This document shows positions 16,226 to 55,000 of a stretch of 64,000 nt of DNA, one piece after another. The DNA is from a virus, in the IMG/VR virus record IMGVR_UViG_3300050821_006746, positions 45,142 to 109,141 of that record; one strand, 5' to 3'. The notes below the pieces were generated by a model. The model had not been told where the DNA came from. It saw nothing but the letters and a program-made list of their open reading frames with translations, and searched no databases. Within the stretch, counting starts at the first letter, position 1, and each line of letters begins with the position of its first letter. A program made the translations under genes and the position numbers.

Positions 16226-16710
16226 GTATTGATAATCCCACTAAACACATCCTTGTAAAAGATGTACATCAGTTTGAATGGATGCTCTACCGGCGTGGCT
16301 GCACATCGTTTGCTTCGTGGAGTGATGTGCATGGAATGGTGTACGCGACGATGCTTGGTAATGAGGTATATCAGTTTCGAGAAGACTTTTTCTTGCACGA
16401 GACTGTAGAGATTGTTTCTCATCGTCTAGAGGTTATGATGGGCAACGGGATGCACTTTGTTTGGTGCAAGCAGTGCCACGAGCCATTGTTGAAAATAGAG
16501 ACAGGACATGCAGAATGGATTGAAACTGGTGGCGATGCGTATCAGATGTATGATAATGCGATTATGCTGATGCCAGGCGTTGCCTTTGAGATGACAATCG
16601 AATATCGTAGCGCGAAGGCTGGACCCGCTTCACCTGTGATCGAGTCTTGTGTAAATTGTGGCGTGTTGTTGGACGGGAACACTAGCGAGATCGAAGATTG
16701 CCAGGATTAG
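16222..16710 (+). CDS. Hypothetical Zn-finger protein
   Basis: CKQC...CVNC; ATGA coupling. Confidence 0.6.
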   Translation: MSIDNPTKHILVKDVHQFEWMLYRRGCTSFASWSDVHGMVYATMLGNEVYQFREDFFLHETVEIVSHRLEVMMGNGMHFVWCKQCHEPLLKIETGHAEWIETGGDAYQMYDNAIMLMPGVAFEMTIEYRSAKAGPASPVIESCVNCGVLLDGNTSEIEDCQD

Positions 16711-46258: not shown

Positions 46259-46648
46259 ATGGCGCGAGATGTGCATATTGACGCTGGCTACTTTAACAAG
46301 CCAATCCAGTTCCAGTCCGAGCAAACTACTCCTGATGGATCAGGTGGTAGTACAGCAACGGGATGGACAACTGCTTATAAGTGCATGGCTCATATCGATA
46401 ATCTTACCGATTCGACAACAGCGATTAGACGCATAGCAACACGGCCATTTCAGTTCATGCAGCTCTATCCTCAGATGGACGCATTGATGTCTATACGCTA
46501 TCAAGCAAGCACGGCGCTTACACCAGCAATGACCATACTTTATAGAAATCGACGATATCAAATTATTGATTTGATTACTCCACATGAGGAGTTAGTTGCG
46601 ATTGTAATACCCGTAGTGCTCTATCAAGCGCCTGGTACACCGGGATAA
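46259..46648 (+). CDS. Head-tail adaptor/head closure protein (gp16-like)
   Basis: AG.FN..I.FQ...PDGSGG...W; IRY...MTILYRNRRYQI. Confidence 0.85.
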   Translation: MARDVHIDAGYFNKPIQFQSEQTTPDGSGGSTATGWTTAYKCMAHIDNLTDSTTAIRRIATRPFQFMQLYPQMDALMSIRYQASTALTPAMTILYRNRRYQIIDLITPHEELVAIVIPVVLYQAPGTPG

Positions 46649-46657
46649 GGGGGTAGT

Positions 46658-47083
46658 ATGACGATTGTAGGCGGATCATCGCTGCTTCCAACACAGGAGG
46701 CGGTCTACACGGTACTCACTGGCAATGCAGGCTTTACTAGCATCTGCGCAGGTCCTTTCGATCCAGCCCCGATAAATCAGGCGTTTCCTTATAGTGCGTT
46801 TGGGGCACATACCGAGTCCGCTTGGTATCAATTCCAGAAAACCAGCAAGCAGATTGATTTCGTTATTCATGTTTATAGCAAGCAACCAACATTTGCAGAA
46901 GCGATGACCATCTTGAATGTGATTAATGGCTTGATCGAGGGACAAACGCTGAGTTTAACAAGCGGGAATTACACCAACGCTGAGAATGGTGTGCTATTTG
47001 TTAGTGCTCGCAAGGTTGAGGAGCCTGATGGACTCACACGACATCTCGAATGTAGATGGCATATCTATAACAATGCCAACTAG
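46658..47083 (+). CDS. Tail completion/terminator protein (DUF3168-like)
   Basis: QEAVYTVLTG...FD..P...FPY..FG; IHVYS; DGLTRH. Confidence 0.8.
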   Translation: MTIVGGSSLLPTQEAVYTVLTGNAGFTSICAGPFDPAPINQAFPYSAFGAHTESAWYQFQKTSKQIDFVIHVYSKQPTFAEAMTILNVINGLIEGQTLSLTSGNYTNAENGVLFVSARKVEEPDGLTRHLECRWHIYNNAN

Positions 47084-47096
47084 GAGGCGTGACGCA

Positions 47097-47626
47097 ATGA
47101 CACCAGAACAAGAACAGGCACTCACTGACAAGATGGCTGGTATCGGCTACCCAGATTTCGATGTGATGCCAGGCGAAGAGAGTGTGCTCATGCTCCATGT
47201 ACAGAGTAAGCTGATTGGTGGCACGCTCTATGCATTGGGATTGCCAGATGAGCAGTTGAAGGCACTGATTGATGAGACGGTGGCAGGAGGACAAAGCTGA
47301 TGGGCGCAATCCGATTGGAGCACGCAAAGGGTAGGAATTTCACTGCTGAGGAGTTGGTTGGGCGACAAATCAGGATTGAAGGGCCAGTTCCTAAGAGGGG
47401 AACGCAGCCTATTGGGTACAACATGCTGATCGTTGCCGATGATGAGAGTATCGATAATGCGTGCAAGCTTGAGTTGAGCATAGAGCCTGATGCTGTAATT
47501 GAAGCAAGGGTGACGCTCTATCGCTTTGACTTGGCAACCGCAGAAGAACGTGTGCCGACTGAGGTGGTTACGCTGAGGGATAACATCGAAGTGTCGTTCT
47601 CTGCTATCGTATCGGAGGTGGAATGA
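47097..47626 (+). other. Two small hypothetical genes
   Basis: Coupled ORFs 47097-47300 and 47300-47626. Confidence 0.55.
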
Positions 47627-48030
47627 TGGGCGCAAGAGTCATTATCGAATGGGATGGGTTGGAGCAGGTAATCTCCAATCTCGCGGATCTTGGGGAGAAA
47701 GCACCGCAGAACCTTGAGCATCAGATGGCAGAACTGGCAAGCGCAACGGAGGATGCATGGAAAGAGAGCACGCCGCGACGAACGGGCAGGCTGCAAGAAG
47801 CAGATATCGTGGAGACGGGTGGCATGTCATTTACGCTGAATAATGCTACCCGGTACTACGATTGGGTAGATCGGGGGCACATGACTCCAGCAGGTTGGCG
47901 TACCAGACATGGCTATCGTCCCGCCAAACGCCGGTCTCATGTTGAGGGGCAAGAGATGACTGATAAGGCTGTTCAGTTTATTGAGGAGAATATTGAGGAT
48001 TATCTCTCGAAGTTCTTGGATAACATATAG
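47623..48030 (+). CDS. HK97 gp10-like tail component
   Basis: GLEQV, TPRRTGRL, YYDWVDRGH. Confidence 0.8.
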   Translation: MMGARVIIEWDGLEQVISNLADLGEKAPQNLEHQMAELASATEDAWKESTPRRTGRLQEADIVETGGMSFTLNNATRYYDWVDRGHMTPAGWRTRHGYRPAKRRSHVEGQEMTDKAVQFIEENIEDYLSKFLDNI

Positions 48031-48038
48031 GTGTTGCA

Positions 48039-48236
48039 ATGGAGAATTCAGTAAAAATACATTGCGAAACAACAGGGAAGCTCCTTGCGCGCCGTGATGA
48101 GAATGGCGTTTATTTATGGTGCAAAGAATGTAAGGTTGAGCATTTTATTTCGTGGGTTCCCAAAGATAACAAGAGTGAGGAAAATGCCGATAAAGTAGTT
48201 TCTGGAGAGGTTTTATGCTATAATCTGAGTATATAA
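48039..48236 (+). CDS. Com-like zinc-finger regulator
   Basis: IHCETTGKLLAR...LWCKECKVEH resembles Mu Com (C..C.KLL...C..C); second Cys replaced. Confidence 0.6.
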   Translation: MENSVKIHCETTGKLLARRDENGVYLWCKECKVEHFISWVPKDNKSEENADKVVSGEVLCYNLSI

Positions 48237-48335
48237 ATTGTGTGCCTCTGCAAGTGCGCTAACACTCCAGAGGCCGACCCTGAGTGTAAGTTCAAGGCAA
48301 GGTTATTATACCTTGTTAGGAAAGGGGTTTCTACC

Positions 48336-49061
48336 ATGTCTGGGCCAAAAGGCAACAAGAATGCTTTGGGATATCGACACACTGAGGAGGCAAAGAAACA
48401 TCTAGCGGATATCGCAAGAGGTAAGGAGGGATCAGAGAAACAGCGGCAAACTGTAATTGCTCTAAACAAATCAAGATCGGGCCAACCTGGACATCTCCAC
48501 ACAGAGGAGTCACGTCGAAAAATAGCAGAAGCCCATCGAGCACGCTGGAATGATCCCGAATGGAGAGCTAAAAGAGCCAAACAACTAAGGGAGGCTTTTG
48601 AGCAACCTGAAGCGATAGAGAAGATGAGAGAAGGCGTCACTGCCCATTGGTCAACCATTAGTTACGAAGAGAGACTAGAGCGCAATGCTGCAGGGCGAAA
48701 GGCTTCTCTGGAAGCAAATCCAACGAGCATTGAAATAAAGGTAAGTCAATACTTAGAAAATCTTGGCATTCAATTTATTGAGCAAAAGCAGGAAGGCCCA
48801 TACTTTCTAGACTTTTATCTTCCTGTAAAGAGGGTCATTGTAGAGGCGATGGGATGCTATTTTCATTCTTGTGCTGTTTGTGGGAAGCAAAATGCTTACA
48901 AGCCCGATGCTCCTGCTTATGACGCAAGGCGTAAGAATTATCTAGAAAAGAGGGGGTATCACGTCATTTGGATATGGGAACATGATATTAACAGGGATGT
49001 TGAGTTTGTACTTCGCCCTCTCTTGGAAAAATGTGGGGCGATAGAATACCCTACGGGGTAA
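48336..49061 (+). CDS. NUMOD3-repeat + DUF559/Vsr-like endonuclease
   Basis: HTEEAKKHL, HTEESRRKIAEA; PTSIE...LDF...IVEAMGCYFH...D..R...GY.V..IWEHD. Confidence 0.85.
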   Translation: MSGPKGNKNALGYRHTEEAKKHLADIARGKEGSEKQRQTVIALNKSRSGQPGHLHTEESRRKIAEAHRARWNDPEWRAKRAKQLREAFEQPEAIEKMREGVTAHWSTISYEERLERNAAGRKASLEANPTSIEIKVSQYLENLGIQFIEQKQEGPYFLDFYLPVKRVIVEAMGCYFHSCAVCGKQNAYKPDAPAYDARRKNYLEKRGYHVIWIWEHDINRDVEFVLRPLLEKCGAIEYPTG

Positions 49062-49102
49062 CGCAAAATTAGAGTTTTGTCAGAACAATAGAAAACGCAA
49101 AA

Positions 49103-49216
49103 GAGCCTTGAGCCACGGAACTGAGCATATCAGTATCGTGGCTTTTTTGATAAGTAGCCTTGAGCCTTGAGCCTTTTGACTACCAGTATCTTTTGGTAAG
49201 AAAGGCAGAAAAGGCA
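49103..49216 (+). promoter_or_regulatory. GAGCCTT repeats overlapping a terminator and an RBS-sequestering hairpin
   Basis: GAGCC at 49103, 49110, 49162, 49169 (TAGCC 49155); AGCCACG/CGTGGCT+T run; GCCTTTT/AAAAGGC. Confidence 0.6.
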
Positions 49217-49600
49217 TTGACAGCTTTAGCAGGAATCGGCGCGTCGGTCCAAGAATCTAGCACGGCCTTTACTGATTCAAGTAAATGGACTCTATCCCTC
49301 AAAAACGCCACCAAAGATGTCACCCCATTCGGGGCATCTGGCAGTTGGGCTATAAACATCCCCACGATCAACTCATGGACCGCAAAGGTATCTGTGTTCA
49401 TTGATCCTAGCGACACAGCACAATCAAACCTCAACGCACTGCTTGGGACAGTCGTATCACTCACGCTCAATGTGAGTGGTACGCCTCATGGCTGGACAGG
49501 TAGCGCAATCCTCGCAGGCATCGATCCTAGTGTGGACGCCCAGAGTGCGGAAACATGCGATTACTCCTTTACTGGAAGCGGATCGATCGCTTATTCCTGA
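49217..49600 (+). CDS. Tail tube-like protein 1
   Basis: WTLS...KDVTPFG...I.TINSWT; FTGSG; TTG start. Confidence 0.8.
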   Translation: MTALAGIGASVQESSTAFTDSSKWTLSLKNATKDVTPFGASGSWAINIPTINSWTAKVSVFIDPSDTAQSNLNALLGTVVSLTLNVSGTPHGWTGSAILAGIDPSVDAQSAETCDYSFTGSGSIAYS

Positions 49601-49632
49601 GCTTAAAAACAAACGGAGAGGAGGTAACCGCC

Positions 49633-50331
49633 ATTAGCGCATATGCAGGCATAAATGGGGATGTTTGGCTTTCCACGTCACCCCCAACGGCACTTGGCTC
49701 ACCCGAATCAGTCGCTGACTCAGGTGATCATATTCATTACTTCACAGCAACACATCCGGCGTGGGATTGGACAAAGACGTTGACTGTCCAGTGCTCACCA
49801 AATGGCTCGTCAGGCTGGGCAACCGTGACTGACTACATCTTTTTCTGGCCAGCCGGTGAAGTTGTGTTTAACACGGCGCGCGTACCTGGCACGAATAACT
49901 TCGTGCGCCTATCTGCTGGCAGTTACTTCACACTCTCTGCTCTGGGGGGCGCGCACATGTGGAAAGCGACTGGAAAGGCTGCCACCAAAGATGTGACGCC
50001 GTTCCAGGCCAGCGGTCATTATCAGCAAAACATAGCGACCATCAAATCGTGGACGTTCTCTGTGGACTGCTTCTCTCAGGATGCCAGAATCATGAACGAA
50101 ATGGTCACGGGAATGAGCGGCATCAACACCTCTGGGGGAGTGATCGTTTGCCAGTTGTGGTGGGACGAGACGAATGGCAGGCGCTATCAGTTTTTCGCGC
50201 TCCCAACACAACTGGACACAACTGTTGTGTCCAGCGACGTGGACAAGCAGACGGTGCAAATGACAGTCACCGGGCCACTCTATCAGATCACATCGAACAC
50301 ATTCACGACAGCAACTGTCACACGGATGTAG
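49633..50331 (+). CDS. Tail tube-like protein 2 with inserted domain
   Basis: KDVTPFQ...IATIKSWT paralogous to previous gene; likely ATT start after GGAGG. Confidence 0.75.
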   Translation: MSAYAGINGDVWLSTSPPTALGSPESVADSGDHIHYFTATHPAWDWTKTLTVQCSPNGSSGWATVTDYIFFWPAGEVVFNTARVPGTNNFVRLSAGSYFTLSALGGAHMWKATGKAATKDVTPFQASGHYQQNIATIKSWTFSVDCFSQDARIMNEMVTGMSGINTSGGVIVCQLWWDETNGRRYQFFALPTQLDTTVVSSDVDKQTVQMTVTGPLYQITSNTFTTATVTRM

Positions 50332-51166: not shown

Positions 51167-51325
51167 GAAAGAAATACGGTATAAATGACGATATTGGCAG
51201 TTGATACAAAGTGGCATAAGTTGGCTTGTAGAGCCAATCTATGGTATAATATGGGTACAAAAAAGATGTTCGCTCTGGCGGTGCTGGAACACCCCAGAGC
51301 TGATGACAAGAAAGGAACTCTCGTC

Positions 51326-52051
51326 ATGTCCTCAAGTATACCACGCCCTAAAAAGCCTGCCCTGGAACGTTTCCTCTCGTTTGTTGCCGTGCAAGAAGAC
51401 GGTTGTTGGCTGTGGACGGGATGCATAACTAAAGGTGGATATGGAAGTTTTAGAAATGAACACGGGAAAACCGAAAATAGCCATAAATGGGCTTACAAGG
51501 TCTTTATTGGACCTGTCCCTGAGGGGTTAGAACTCGACCACCTTTGCCGAAATCGTGCCTGCGTAAATCCAAATCATCTAGAACCTGTTACTCGTTCCCA
51601 GAATACTGTTCGTGGACTAAAGGGAATACTTAAACCAGGCAAAATATCTAAATATGTAGGCGTGTATTGGACCGAACGCCTACATAAGTGGCGATCCACC
51701 ACGAAAATCAATGGCAAAAGTTACTATCTGGGGCATTTTTCCAGCGAAGAAGAGGCGCATCAAGCATATGTACAGGCTTGTAAATCTTATGAAGCAGATG
51801 GAACAATCCCGGTAAAACTACTTACAGCAAAGAAAACATCTCGCTATCCAGGGGTATCATGGCACAAACGTAAAGAGAAATGGGGGGCATCAGTACGCAT
51901 AAATGGCAAACAATGTTACATTGGCTACTTTGTGTCTGAGGAAGAGGCATATCAGGCATATGTAACCGCCAAAACGAACTTTGAACAATATGGCATTCTC
52001 CCTCAACCAAGATCGTATGCAAGGAAGTTGCAAGAGAGAGGGGGTGATTGA
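51326..52051 (+). CDS. HNH homing endonuclease with two AP2 domains
   Basis: CWLWTG...GYG, LDHLCRNRACVNPNHLEPVT; two SKY.GV.W...W...YLG.F..EEEA repeats. Confidence 0.92.
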   Translation: MSSSIPRPKKPALERFLSFVAVQEDGCWLWTGCITKGGYGSFRNEHGKTENSHKWAYKVFIGPVPEGLELDHLCRNRACVNPNHLEPVTRSQNTVRGLKGILKPGKISKYVGVYWTERLHKWRSTTKINGKSYYLGHFSSEEEAHQAYVQACKSYEADGTIPVKLLTAKKTSRYPGVSWHKRKEKWGASVRINGKQCYIGYFVSEEEAYQAYVTAKTNFEQYGILPQPRSYARKLQERGGD

Positions 52052-55000
52052 TATCAGCGACATTGGCGAAATAAAAGCTCGTGTGACCATCTCTTATGAC
52101 GGCGCGGGGATCGACGAAGCAAAGAAAGACCTCTCAAGCCTCTCGGATATCGTCGGCGGTGGACTGACAGAGAATGTAGGCACCGCGAATGAAGCACTGG
52201 CGTCGCTTGACGAGCAAATGGGCAAGAATGCGGGAAGTGCCAGCGATCTCGTCTCCTCTGTTGGCGCGATCGAAAAACCTATGCAGGCCAGCGCTGATGC
52301 CGTCTCCTCTGTCAATGAAGTCCTGGGTGAGCAGCAAGCGGCGGTAGAAAATGCTGGTACGGCACTGGAGGGCATGCAAAAGCCACTCGAAGATACGACG
52401 ACGCTCATGCAAAATGCCGCACCTCCTATGAAAACCGTTGTCGAGAATGCGACGGCAATGCAGGCACCTCTGGACGCCGCCAACACCGGCTTCGTTCAGA
52501 TGTCCGAAAGCCTCAACAACGCTGTGCCACTTATGCCTCAAATGGCGTCGGGCATAAGTGGCGTTGCTGAGGCACTTGATCCTAAAGCGCTCGGACTCAG
52601 CGCGGCCACCGATAATCTTGCGGTTTTTCAGGATGCGCTGAGCAATCCTCAGCCGTACCAACTAATCGGTGCGCATCTCGACAGCACCGGACAGAGTTGG
52701 GGTGATTTCTTCTCCTCTGTTGGAACCACCAGTGCCACATTTTCACAACAGATGATTGACAATGCTAAGGCGTCCCAGGCGTCGTTCGGCACTATATCAT
52801 CTGGTGCTCAAAGCGCAGAACAGTCATTTTATGTGGTAGGGAATCAAACCAATGCACTAAGCCAATCCATTGCCGGTATCAACACCTCTGGCGGCGTAGG
52901 AACTGCGCTTTACGGACCAGCAGATTCATGGAGCAAACTAAATGCTGGCCTGGCGAGCACGGAAGAGGGGATCAATAAACTCGGTGGCGTGGGGGCAAAT
53001 CTCTATGGCCCAGAAGTGCCCATCAATCTGGGTAGCATGTTTGATGATATATCGGGGAGCATGGGTAAAGGTTTTGGGGGCTTCGTACAGAGCTTCGATA
53101 GCTTTATGAGGCCATTGATGTACCTCCAAATGGCCGGTATGATGGTTGGCGCGGTTTCAACTGGAATTTATAATATGGCGGCTCTGGCAGAGGGGCCAGC
53201 CGCGCACTCGATCGGGTCCTTCACCGGGGCTATTGATGTGATGGGGCAGCAAGCGCAACAGACGGGGCAACAATTCTCAGAGGGTCTAGGTCAAGGCATC
53301 CTGCCGATGATCAATGCGATGAATAATGTCAGCGGCAACAGCAAAAATACTGACTTTTGGGGTGCCGTGGGTACGGGCATTGGTCAAGTGGGTAGCTTGC
53401 TCGGAACGGTTGGACAAGTTGCTGCTGGTGCGATTATGGATCTGCCGTGGCTTGCCTTTACGCCGAGCACGAATATCTCGTCTATGCCAGGCAATAACTT
53501 GATGCAGCAAGGATGGGAGGGACTGCAAAACCTCTGGGCGCAAATCACAGGAGGAAAAGAACCCTTTCCAACCCCTGGTACACCTGGATCACAGGTATCG
53601 TCAGTCCAAGCGTCAATCAATGCAGGCATCCCCGCTATGTATGCGCAAGCGAATGATCCAGGGTACCTGGCCGCTCAGGCGTACGCAAGCAGTCAGATGG
53701 GCTACGCGACACTAGGACAAACTCGCTACGATGTGTCACATCTCAGCGGTTTTGATACTGCCCCCTGGTATCAAGGCGTACCTACAGCAGCAGCGGGTCC
53801 ACTTAACTATGCACCGCAAGCGTATCAACAATCCTTAATGCCACAGATCCTCGCAACTGGTGGTGCCGGGTCCGGTCTTGACGCTGTGGACCTGAACCGG
53901 CTGTACTTTGAAGCGGCGGACGCGCGGGCTGCACTGGTTGCGCCAGAAACCCCTGGTTGTTTCCCTGCTGGCACTCCTGTCTTGCTCGCTGATGGCACTG
54001 AGAAGGCCATTGAAACTCTGCACAGTGGAGATCGAGCGCTTGCCCACGATGGCACCAAACAGGTCACTACAACGATTTTAGCACTTATCAAGCCGCCTCC
54101 AAAGCTCGTTTACAAACTGGCTTTTGACGATGGCAATACATTAACGCTGACTGATTCTCATCCTGTATCGACGGATCGGGGTTGGAAATCACTCTCACCT
54201 GATGCAACGCGAAAAGAGAATCCTGATTTTGCCGTAACAGTATTGCAGATCGGGGATCGCATCCACACGGTTGGCGGCACCTGCACACTGCTGGCAATAC
54301 AGCCATGCGAGATCGTCCAAGTCTACAACATCACGGTTGGCGAGCAGCACACGTTCTATGCTGGTGGTATCCTCGTCCACAACAAAATATCAATGACTGG
54401 TACGCAAGTTATGCAAAACGTGGCGAATACCACCGTGCCTGACATGGACATGAAGAATACCAATCTCATCCAAAGCCTGGCAAGCAACTTTACCGGAGCC
54501 GATATCTCACACACGTTCACAGCGTCGGTCAATTGGGCAGCAACAGGCGACTTAGCGCATACCTTTCAGGGTTCTCCAGGCTGGGCAACAGTCGGTGAGT
54601 TGGCACATATATTTCTGGGTGCTCCTGATTGGGCAACAGTCGGTGAGTTAGCCCACACATTTCAGGGCATTGCTAATTGGGTGGCAACGGGTGGCTTGCA
54701 ACACTCCTTTGAGGGGATTCTCAACTGGGTAGTTCCACCAGAGATTCAACACACGTTCGAGGGTATTGCTAATTGGGTGACATCGGGCGAAATGGCCCAC
54801 ACATTTCAGGGATGGGCGTCGTGGGTTGGACAGGAACTCACCCACACATTCACTGCCGTCGCGAATTGGGTGGTATCTGGGCTCTCGCAAACAGCTTCTG
54901 TGCCTGGATTCGCTGCTGGTGTTCAAAATTTCGGCGGCGGTCTCGCTGTCGTGGGTGAGTACGGGCCTGAGCTGGTGCATCTACCTCAAGGCACCAGCGT

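Follow-up and report, generated by a model that had tools for sequence, protein, structure and literature searches.

A zinc-ribbon gene and a repeat-bearing RNA leader as a candidate Com/mom-type control module ahead of a tail-tube gene in a soil phage

Introduction

The closest described counterpart of the locus considered here is the com/mom system of bacteriophage Mu. SELEX with the Com zinc finger yielded repeated GAG(N)2CC and the bipartite form NGAGNNCC(N)2-3GAGNNCCNN, and binding in electrophoretic mobility shift assays (EMSA) requires 5'-CC(N)2-3GAG-3' with an accessible GA (PMC6483171). Several such motifs adjoin or overlap the translation-inhibition stem that holds the GUG start of mom (PMC6483171), and the targets of Com are mom, or methyltransferase genes in Mu-like prophages (PMC6483171, PMC3299994). 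The present analysis concerns a soil phage from IMG/VR, whose complete record of 109,141 bp carries direct terminal repeats. The stretch under study, hereafter the window, comprises the 64,000 nucleotides at bases 45142-109141 of that record, and coordinates given without a prefix are window positions. At the neck-to-tail junction of a siphovirus-type morphogenesis operon, a gene for a 65-aa zinc-ribbon protein is followed by an untranslated, repeat-bearing leader and a tail-tube gene. On balance we lean towards a model in which the zinc protein binds the RNA repeats and so opens both the base of a terminator and the arm that pairs with the Shine-Dalgarno sequence (SD; the anti-SD arm), switching on tail-tube expression.

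Like Mu Com, the protein has about 60 aa, an N-terminal zinc ribbon and a disordered C-terminus, and the 'C-x-x-x-x-K-L-L' of its first knuckle and the 'C-x-x-C' of its second align in register with those of Com. As in Mu com/mom, the regulator gene stands just upstream of its putative target and in the same orientation; the target has a non-AUG start, with SD and start buried in a stem (here a predicted one), and CC(N)2-3GAG or GAG..CC repeats adjoin and overlap the 5' side of the inhibitory structure. Unlike that of Com, the zinc site is C3H in most members of the family, which carry an invariant W-C-x-x-C-x-x-E-H signature. Whereas mom specifies a toxic DNA-modification enzyme, the targets here are abundant virion or assembly proteins (tail tube, cement-like, scaffold). 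The Com site of mom RNA lies in a hairpin loop, whereas the site here lies in a single strand and the base of a stem. Finally, the hairpin that has the repeats at its base is of the terminator type and is followed by a U-run, which points to a possible transcriptional level in addition to com/mom control as described in the sources cited above.

Whether an intrinsic terminator forms is decided in other systems by RNA-binding regulators such as HutP, LicT/SacY, GlpP and TRAP. The locus resembles those of HutP and TRAP in that short repeated RNA motifs (UAG/GAG) overlap the 5' portion of the terminator. These regulators differ in having unrelated folds, in being host-encoded and in responding to metabolites, and to our knowledge no protein of the HutP, LicT, GlpP or TRAP type is a zinc ribbon of about 60 aa or couples antitermination to unmasking of the SD of the same gene. 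Lambda N and Q and the HK022 put RNA are likewise phage devices for passing terminators on the way to late or structural genes. They modify RNA polymerase for processive read-through of many terminators, whereas here the site overlaps the stem of a single terminator, and neither elements of the nut or qut kind nor similar proteins are present. A search of the literature turned up no publication that connects a Com-like factor with genes for tail or other structural proteins.

Results

Repeats and hairpins in the leader of the window phage

The elements of the proposed module are, in order:

48039-48236, + strand: open reading frame (ORF) for the 65-aa zinc-ribbon protein, the proposed trans-acting RNA-binding factor
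48336-49061, + strand: free-standing homing endonuclease, NUMOD3 with DUF559/Vsr-like domain (Pfam and PHROG matches)
Between the endonuclease and tail-tube genes: untranslated stretch of 155 nt
49082-49101, + strand: A-rich block AGAACAAUAGAAAACGCAAA, conserved columns inside the covariance-model match 49081-49158
49103-49116, + strand: direct repeat GAGCCUU-GAGCCAC (sites 1 and 2), the second copy being the bottom of the terminator stem
49110-49148, + strand: terminator-type hairpin (49110-49144) with U6 run (49143-49148)
49156-49175, + strand: tandem AGCCUUG x2.9, the second GAGCCUUGAGCC copy, forming the anti-SD arm
49164-49215, + strand: predicted SD-sequestering hairpin
49217-49600, + strand: tail-tube (major tail protein-like) gene, 127 aa, TTG start, phrog_1407, the proposed regulated target

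An earlier note, made from the letters of the window alone, had pointed to GAGCCTT repeats with a period of 7 nt, and these are borne out. Tandem Repeats Finder returned AGCCTTG x2.9, 100% identical, at 49156-49175; GAGCCTT has three + strand copies in the 64-kb window, all within 49103-49175; and the 12-mer GAGCCTTGAGCC occurs exactly twice, at 49103 and 49162, flanking the hairpin between them.

This hairpin has the arms GAGCCACGG...UCGUGGCUU and an inner ACUGA/UCAGU helix. Its fold of -20.7 kcal/mol (z -4.5) was not equalled in stability by any of the shuffled sequences (0/200). A stable, G+C-containing stem, a U6 run directly after it and a covarying helix are all present, consistent with an intrinsic terminator; a simple terminator scanner missed the hairpin because of its 1x1 internal loops and the scanner's loop rule. 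The note had placed one pair of repeats over the 5' arm of a terminator-like hairpin, and a GAGCC copy does form the base of this stem.

The note had also described a triplet of repeats overlapping a GCCTTTT/AAAAGGC stem just before a TTG start codon. That stem proves to be one register of the hairpin predicted at 49164-49215, in which GCCUU (49164-68) pairs with AAGGC (49211-15), GCCUUUU (49171-77) with GAAAGGC (49200-06) and, in an apical helix, UACCAG (49181-86) with UUGGUA (49193-98). The hairpin covers both purine tracts, GAAAGGC and AAGGC, outside which there is no SD candidate, and it stops 1 nt short of UUG 49217. Its fold of -21.6 kcal/mol (z -2.7; 4/200 shuffles equally stable) is also present in the minimum free energy structure of the whole leader. 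TTG 49217 is the true start of the tail-tube gene, as the note had proposed, because all homologues align from residue 1 there.

CCUUGAG, a form of the CC(N)2-3GAG bound by Com, appears three times in the leader, at 49106-49112, 49158-49164 and 49165-49171. The first copy spans site 1 and the first three nucleotides of the terminator stem, and the other two lie on the anti-SD arm, with the GA just 5' of the stem or in an internal loop. The GAGCC direct repeat has no pairing role of its own, which favours its being a protein site. A cmscan of 48000-49700 against Rfam at E<=10 gave 0 matches.

A family of related leaders

Relatives were gathered by scans with the tail-tube protein, with the zinc-protein alignment and with a DNA pattern. 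The pattern scan was too loose (120+ rows, mostly chance), and only rows with a matching 3' arm were kept. Sixteen non-identical leaders were obtained: those of the window, L004, L005, L009, L011, L020, L024, L025, L027, L028, L029, L030, L031, L081, L106 and L123. We refer to this GAGCC-repeat hairpin type as the type-A leader, in contrast to the different leader of tail-tube loci that have no zinc gene.

The elements of the type-A leader follow a shared order. An A-rich block, AACAA-N2-3-(G/A)AAUAA-N-CAACC, stands directly 5' of the GAGCC repeats; it may belong to the protein site, be cleaved by an RNase E-type enzyme or serve as a phage-specific promoter. Next come GGAGCC, a spacer of 2-5 nt and a GAGCC running into the 5' arm of the hairpin. 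GGAGCC-N2-5-GAGCC was found in 15 relatives, typical hairpin arms are GAGCCAUAC / GUAUGGCUC, and the U-rich run after the hairpin is kept in almost all relatives. At the tail-tube loci the U-run is followed by GCCAUAC, which repeats the 5' arm, then by an anti-SD:SD hairpin with arms that change in step with the SD variant (CCUCCU/AGGAGG, CUCCC/GGGAG, CCUUC/GAAGG), and lastly by the start codon. Masking of SD and start is predicted in most type-A leaders. Their start codons are non-AUG (TTG/GTG) in 9/14 cases, whereas leaders without a zinc gene all have ATG.

Support for the terminator helix comes from covariation. The outer helix is 99% paired across 12 sequences, with compensatory double changes in 4/8 pairs, and its covariation score lies above those of all slid controls and of 500/500 shuffles. 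Twelve relatives, the window excluded, were used to build a covariance model. Run over the 109-kb genome, this model had one significant match, 49081-49158 (24 bits, E about 0.001); L081 was recovered as well (40 bits), and about 85 control loci gave nothing. The leaders of L028 and L029 are too divergent for this model, yet the strong terminator of each has an identical GAGCCUUGAGCC at its base.

The 3' arm of the terminator may have a second partner. Its predicted pairing with the downstream 5'-arm copy amounts to -12 to -20 kcal/mol in 10/10 relatives, comparable to the outer helix of the terminator. The 3' arm of L011 is a better match to the downstream copy than to the upstream one, and the three copies of L020 have all changed together. 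When the 5' sites were blocked in silico the alternative helix formed, and accessibility of the ribosome-binding site (RBS) went up in L004, L005, L009, L025, L027 and L031. The 5 bp that the downstream repeat could form with the start codon do not exceed background in several relatives and are given no weight here.

Between terminator and SD, one leader (L106:190-215) replaces the GCCAUAC copy by GACGCAAG repeated exactly three times in tandem. A triple repeat of 7-8 nt at this place is seen in two lineages, this one and the window, with different sequences.

Com-type motifs are enriched in the family. In 14 type-A leaders together, CC(N)2-3GAG has 15 occurrences where shuffles predict 2.6±1.7, and GAG(N)0-2CC has 29 where they predict 3.8; the corresponding counts in leaders without the zinc gene were 0 and 4.

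Co-occurrence of gene and leader

The zinc gene ends 30-60 nt before the leader in L005, L020, L024, L025 (L140), L027, L030, L031, L106, L028 and L029. One unrelated ORF separates the two in the window (the endonuclease; 48237-49061), in L004 (93 aa; L004:3586-3888) and in L009 (141 aa; L009:1129-1554), and in L123 two HNH genes occupy all the available upstream sequence (L123:80-1282). Since other lineages hold other ORFs or nothing at this place, the window endonuclease is an insertion into a pre-existing gene-leader pair, and the spacer is a recurrent insertion site. The note had called the endonuclease inserted, which fits both its NUMOD3 and DUF559/Vsr-like domains and the state of the relatives, and had proposed looking at gene-repeat adjacency in phages that lack it; in many of these the zinc gene and the GAGCC leader do travel together.

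Seven tail-tube loci have a different leader, with the gp10-like gene directly before it, an ATG start, a long hairpin and no U-run, and across 2.4-8.4 kb of these loci no zinc-family motif was found. In the tail-tube tree, which is poorly resolved, the states with and without the zinc gene are interleaved, and at least two changes are forced. The module is also portable, standing before a cement-like gene (L024), before a tRNA and a scaffold gene (L028/29) and before unknown genes (L106, L123).

Two further observations concern these loci. The other leader is itself conserved (L006, L010, L012-L015, L017, L018; ~100 nt before the tail-tube ATG) and contains a long imperfect hairpin with CUGAGCAC, and a GGAGG-like tract lies in the 3' arm of that hairpin. 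The tRNA gene of L028 (L028:3175-3260), and likewise that of L029, has the anticodon region ..CUGAAAA.. and, read by eye, is probably for Phe; it begins about 10 nt past the terminator U-run, ahead of a GP20-type scaffold gene.

The zinc-ribbon protein and its relationship to Com

The 65-aa protein belongs to a conserved family of small C3H/C4 zinc-ribbon proteins with a Com-like layout. From the alignment, its likely zinc ligands are C9, C28, C31 and H35. In fourteen close relatives C9, R18, W27, C28, C31 and E34 are invariant and K14 nearly so, and H35 is kept in all except the short L028/29 forms. A profile search of 1.84 billion representatives returned 117 proteins (clusters) at E<=1e-3, nearly all of 45-100 aa, with the consensus I-x-C-x-x-T-G-K-L-L-A-R-x-D-x-x-G-x-Y-L-W-C-K-x-C-x-x-E-H. 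In a minority the first knuckle contains CxC or CxxC (L028/29, P0064, P0085, P0090, P0094, P0099).

The AlphaFold (AF2) model shows four beta strands within residues 5-38, a zinc-ribbon-like core with a predicted local distance difference test (pLDDT) score of about 88, and a C-terminal tail predicted to be disordered (pLDDT <50 from residue 44). Foldseek against the PDB gave weak generic zinc-ribbon rows only (RNA polymerase and ribosomal zinc ribbons, E about 1), and VIA-align gave Z<=3.2, the 40-residue domain being too short for an informative score. Pfam and NCBIfam searches placed the protein in no recognised RNA-binding family, and a wider protein-pattern scan of viral contigs found nothing.

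The note had described a Com-like zinc-finger gene. The zinc-ribbon ORF and the Com-like layout stand; membership of the Com family itself could not be demonstrated. Neither the window protein nor any of 13 close relatives matches PF10122 (Zn_ribbon_Com), with the threshold as loose as E<=10, and a six-frame scan of the 109-kb genome gives no match to it. Across 109 remote relatives PF10122 is absent from the 25 most-matched Pfam families listed of 40, the commonest weak matches being DUF5319 (30 members) and Cys_rich_KTR (9). The best PF10122 scores in the family, 14.5 bits for P0047 and 13.6 bits for P0090, are both below the gathering score of 22.9 bits, which Mu Com itself exceeds with 36.8 bits. 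In place of the CCCC finger of Com (C-x2-C ... C-x2-C) the window protein has C9 ... C28-x2-C31 ... H35, with a single Cys in the first knuckle. By the PF10122 test the zinc protein is not a member of Com.

More sensitive comparisons gave weaker signals in the direction of Com. With hhalign, the family alignment A4 matched Mu Com with a probability of 17% (P 0.0014) and a 14-sequence Com alignment with a probability of 9% (P 0.0035), the knuckles and the KLL motif being in register in both. In the ESM Atlas, Com clusters make up 8/30 of the nearest clusters and are the sole named family, their score of 0.91 (132 shared features) being within the range where chance matches are not rare. The architecture of Com, an N-terminal zinc ribbon with a disordered C-terminus (PMC6483171), is also that of the AF2 model. 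On these comparisons a distant kinship of the zinc protein to Com is plausible but unproven. The protein family and its leader are both undescribed in Pfam and Rfam.

Two candidates were set aside. A 'WCKQCHE' knuckle at window position 16456 is not a paralogue, as only 13 residues match the family profile, and an L003 protein with the peptide GKLLARRD (a chance match) is not a relative, showing only a weak sub-threshold match to a DnaJ-type CxxCxGxG finger. In L020 (L020:199-483, on a 1-kb metagenome contig) an uninterrupted frame runs from the gp10-like ORF into the zinc ORF (…SKFLDDV-LARYS-MVTASS…); where the stop is usually found there is a TAG in the +1 frame, and the arrangement may be a real fusion or the product of a 1-nt indel or sequencing error.

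Genomic surroundings

The genes that flank the module are:

46259-46648: head closure protein
46658-47083: gp17-like tail completion protein
47623-48030, + strand: HK97 gp10-like tail-completion/neck gene (phrog_5; weak PF04883 match)
49633-50331, + strand: second, longer tail-tube paralogue, 232 aa, start probably ATT (phrog_1407)
Downstream of the tail-tube paralogues: chaperone genes, HNH-AP2 endonuclease and tape measure gene with Hint domain

The gp10-like gene is the conserved left neighbour of the module and is syntenic in all tail-tube relatives. These relatives share 54-82% identity in the tail-tube protein, and the L081 homologue matches PF06199. The second tail-tube paralogue is the first gene of the remaining downstream tail operon. 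A strong GGAGG lies 8 nt 5' of an in-frame ATT at 49633, the listed ATG at 49555 lies inside the preceding gene, and the L004 homologue has GTG at the aligned start position. From the placement of GGAGG at the ATT and the GTG of L004, both tail-tube paralogues appear to start at non-AUG codons.

Farther downstream, an HNH-AP2 homing endonuclease lies between the tail chaperone and tape measure genes (window 51185-52051), and the tape measure ORF holds a Hint/intein-like segment, CFPAGT…VHN (window 53900-54400). With these and the NUMOD3 enzyme, the tail module is heavily colonised by selfish elements. Among 50,697 GenBank phages similar DNA was confined to an HNH fragment, and the region resembles none of them. 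A scan of genome contigs found no prophage copies, and a tRNA scan of the window found no tRNA.

Discussion

The 65-aa protein and the leader at 49082-49216 would together form one cis-trans module of the Mu Com/mom kind, wired to a structural gene. Without the protein, the hairpin at 49110-49144 and its U6 run would stop most transcription before the tail-tube gene, and in RNA that reads through, the tandem GCCUU would pair with AAGGC and GAAAGGC, hiding the ribosome-binding region ahead of a weak UUG. Once the protein was made from the gene just upstream, it would bind the GAGCC/CC-NN-GAG repeats as single-stranded RNA. Binding at 49103-49116 would keep the lowest base pairs of the terminator open and lead to read-through, and binding at 49156-49175 would keep the anti-SD arm open for translation. 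In most relatives the second effect may be exerted through the RNA: the freed 3' arm of the terminator would pair with the downstream 5'-arm copy (GCCAUAC), which would otherwise stack on the anti-SD hairpin and pair with the start codon. In the window the downstream copy is replaced by a duplicate of the putative protein site, so that the protein is there more simply read as acting directly. The prevalence of non-AUG starts among type-A leaders fits a design whose default is OFF.

The best-supported model of the element is Com/mom-type control with an added transcriptional layer; from sequence and predicted structure we infer that the protein binds RNA, that its effect is activating and that termination is real. 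The idea put forward in the note, a Com-type protein that could antiterminate and also activate translation of tail genes, receives partial support, and the comparison of relatives has strengthened it considerably. A wider proposal is that a widespread zinc-ribbon RNA-binding family acts on one leader at two levels, such that only antiterminated transcripts are translatable, a form of RNA 'memory', and that the device is portable to late bulk virion genes (tail tube, cement, scaffold). We offer this as a tentative idea and regard it as doubtful.

It is conceivable, if unlikely, that the parts are ordinary and unlinked, with a plain terminator or mRNA-stabilising structure, an SD hairpin that tunes translation and a zinc protein that is adjacent by synteny and has its role elsewhere, in the virion or its assembly or in DNA binding. 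Such an arrangement would account for the classical anatomy of the terminator and for the hairpin that L081 retains with no zinc gene nearby; it would also suit the shared frame of the zinc ORF and the gp10-like neck gene in L020, a hint of a physical connection with the neck, and a protein that falls in no recognised RNA-binding family. It leaves unexplained, however, the GGAGCC-N-GAGCC found 5' of every hairpin and the duplication of the window 12-mer on the anti-SD arm. Nor does it account for the lasting association of gene and hairpin in head, scaffold and unknown contexts, or for the other leader and the ATG starts at tail-tube loci where the gene is missing. The link could also be real and its sign reversed. 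RNA-binding attenuation proteins of both signs are known (TRAP, PyrR, HutP, LicT), and the same co-occurrence and motif evidence would fit a repressor that acts through the GAGCC repeats, by stabilised termination, a ribosome block or feedback on its own operon, and limits tail-tube synthesis as TRAP or PyrR limit their targets. We consider this improbable, since neither the SD nor the start carries a site: the repeats occupy the terminator's 5' arm and the anti-SD strand, where binding would be expected to open both structures. Moreover, there is no upstream antiterminator helix for the protein to disrupt, the default already looks OFF, with a weak start codon and a masked SD, and the precedent of Com is one of activation (PMC6483171).

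A further alternative operates on DNA, the protein being a zinc-finger late activator of the Ogr/Delta type and the GCCATAC/GAGCC copies the operator of a tail promoter. In its favour, a 7-9-mer is present in three co-varying copies (direct, inverted, direct), NCBI labels Com relatives 'DNA-binding transcriptional regulator', and promoters particular to the host could have been missed. A conserved U-run 3' of the inverted repeat makes sense for RNA and not for an operator, however. The helix tolerates G-U pairs, and the better fit of the L011 3' arm to its downstream copy is as expected of RNA pairing. The centre of the inverted repeat also lies only about 65-70 nt from the start codon, with no promoter-like hexamers after it. 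With these points in mind we judge the DNA-level explanation very improbable.

Several findings weigh against the RNA switch operated by the zinc protein. A terminator ahead of the most abundant tail protein is counter-intuitive; one possibility is that it could delay tail-tube synthesis until the head and neck genes and the regulator have been expressed. With the PF10122 test failed, the match to the Com motif could be coincidence or convergence: CC(N)2-3GAG has 5 fixed bases only, and four leaders (L027, L030, L031, L123) miss the strict motif, with spacers of 4-5 nt or no second GAG. Covariation of the alternative helix is weak, with 1 pair changed on both sides and 31/500 shuffles reaching the observed score. 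The gain in RBS accessibility upon blocking of the 5' sites is modest, and there is none in the window, L011, L024 or L030. L081 has the hairpin and a TTG tail-tube start and no zinc gene in its 5-kb contig; the downstream copy is missing too, and the predicted structure leaves the SD open. The relatives share descent, so that the enrichment and co-occurrence counts are not counts of independent events. Finally, no sigma-70-like promoter was found between terminator and start, which speaks for the switch, yet promoters particular to the host could have escaped the scan.

The protein-RNA pair is compact, with some 40 structured residues in the protein and some 130 nt of leader, and comes with natural variants and compensatory changes already available. 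It provides a candidate function for >100 clusters of small 'hypothetical' phage proteins, and it bears on the timing and stoichiometry of tail-tube synthesis relative to the head and neck genes in siphophages. The module would add a terminator layer to Com/mom-type logic, and it suggests that this logic, a tiny zinc finger melting an inhibitory RNA, has been recruited many times for major structural genes in uncultivated soil phages.

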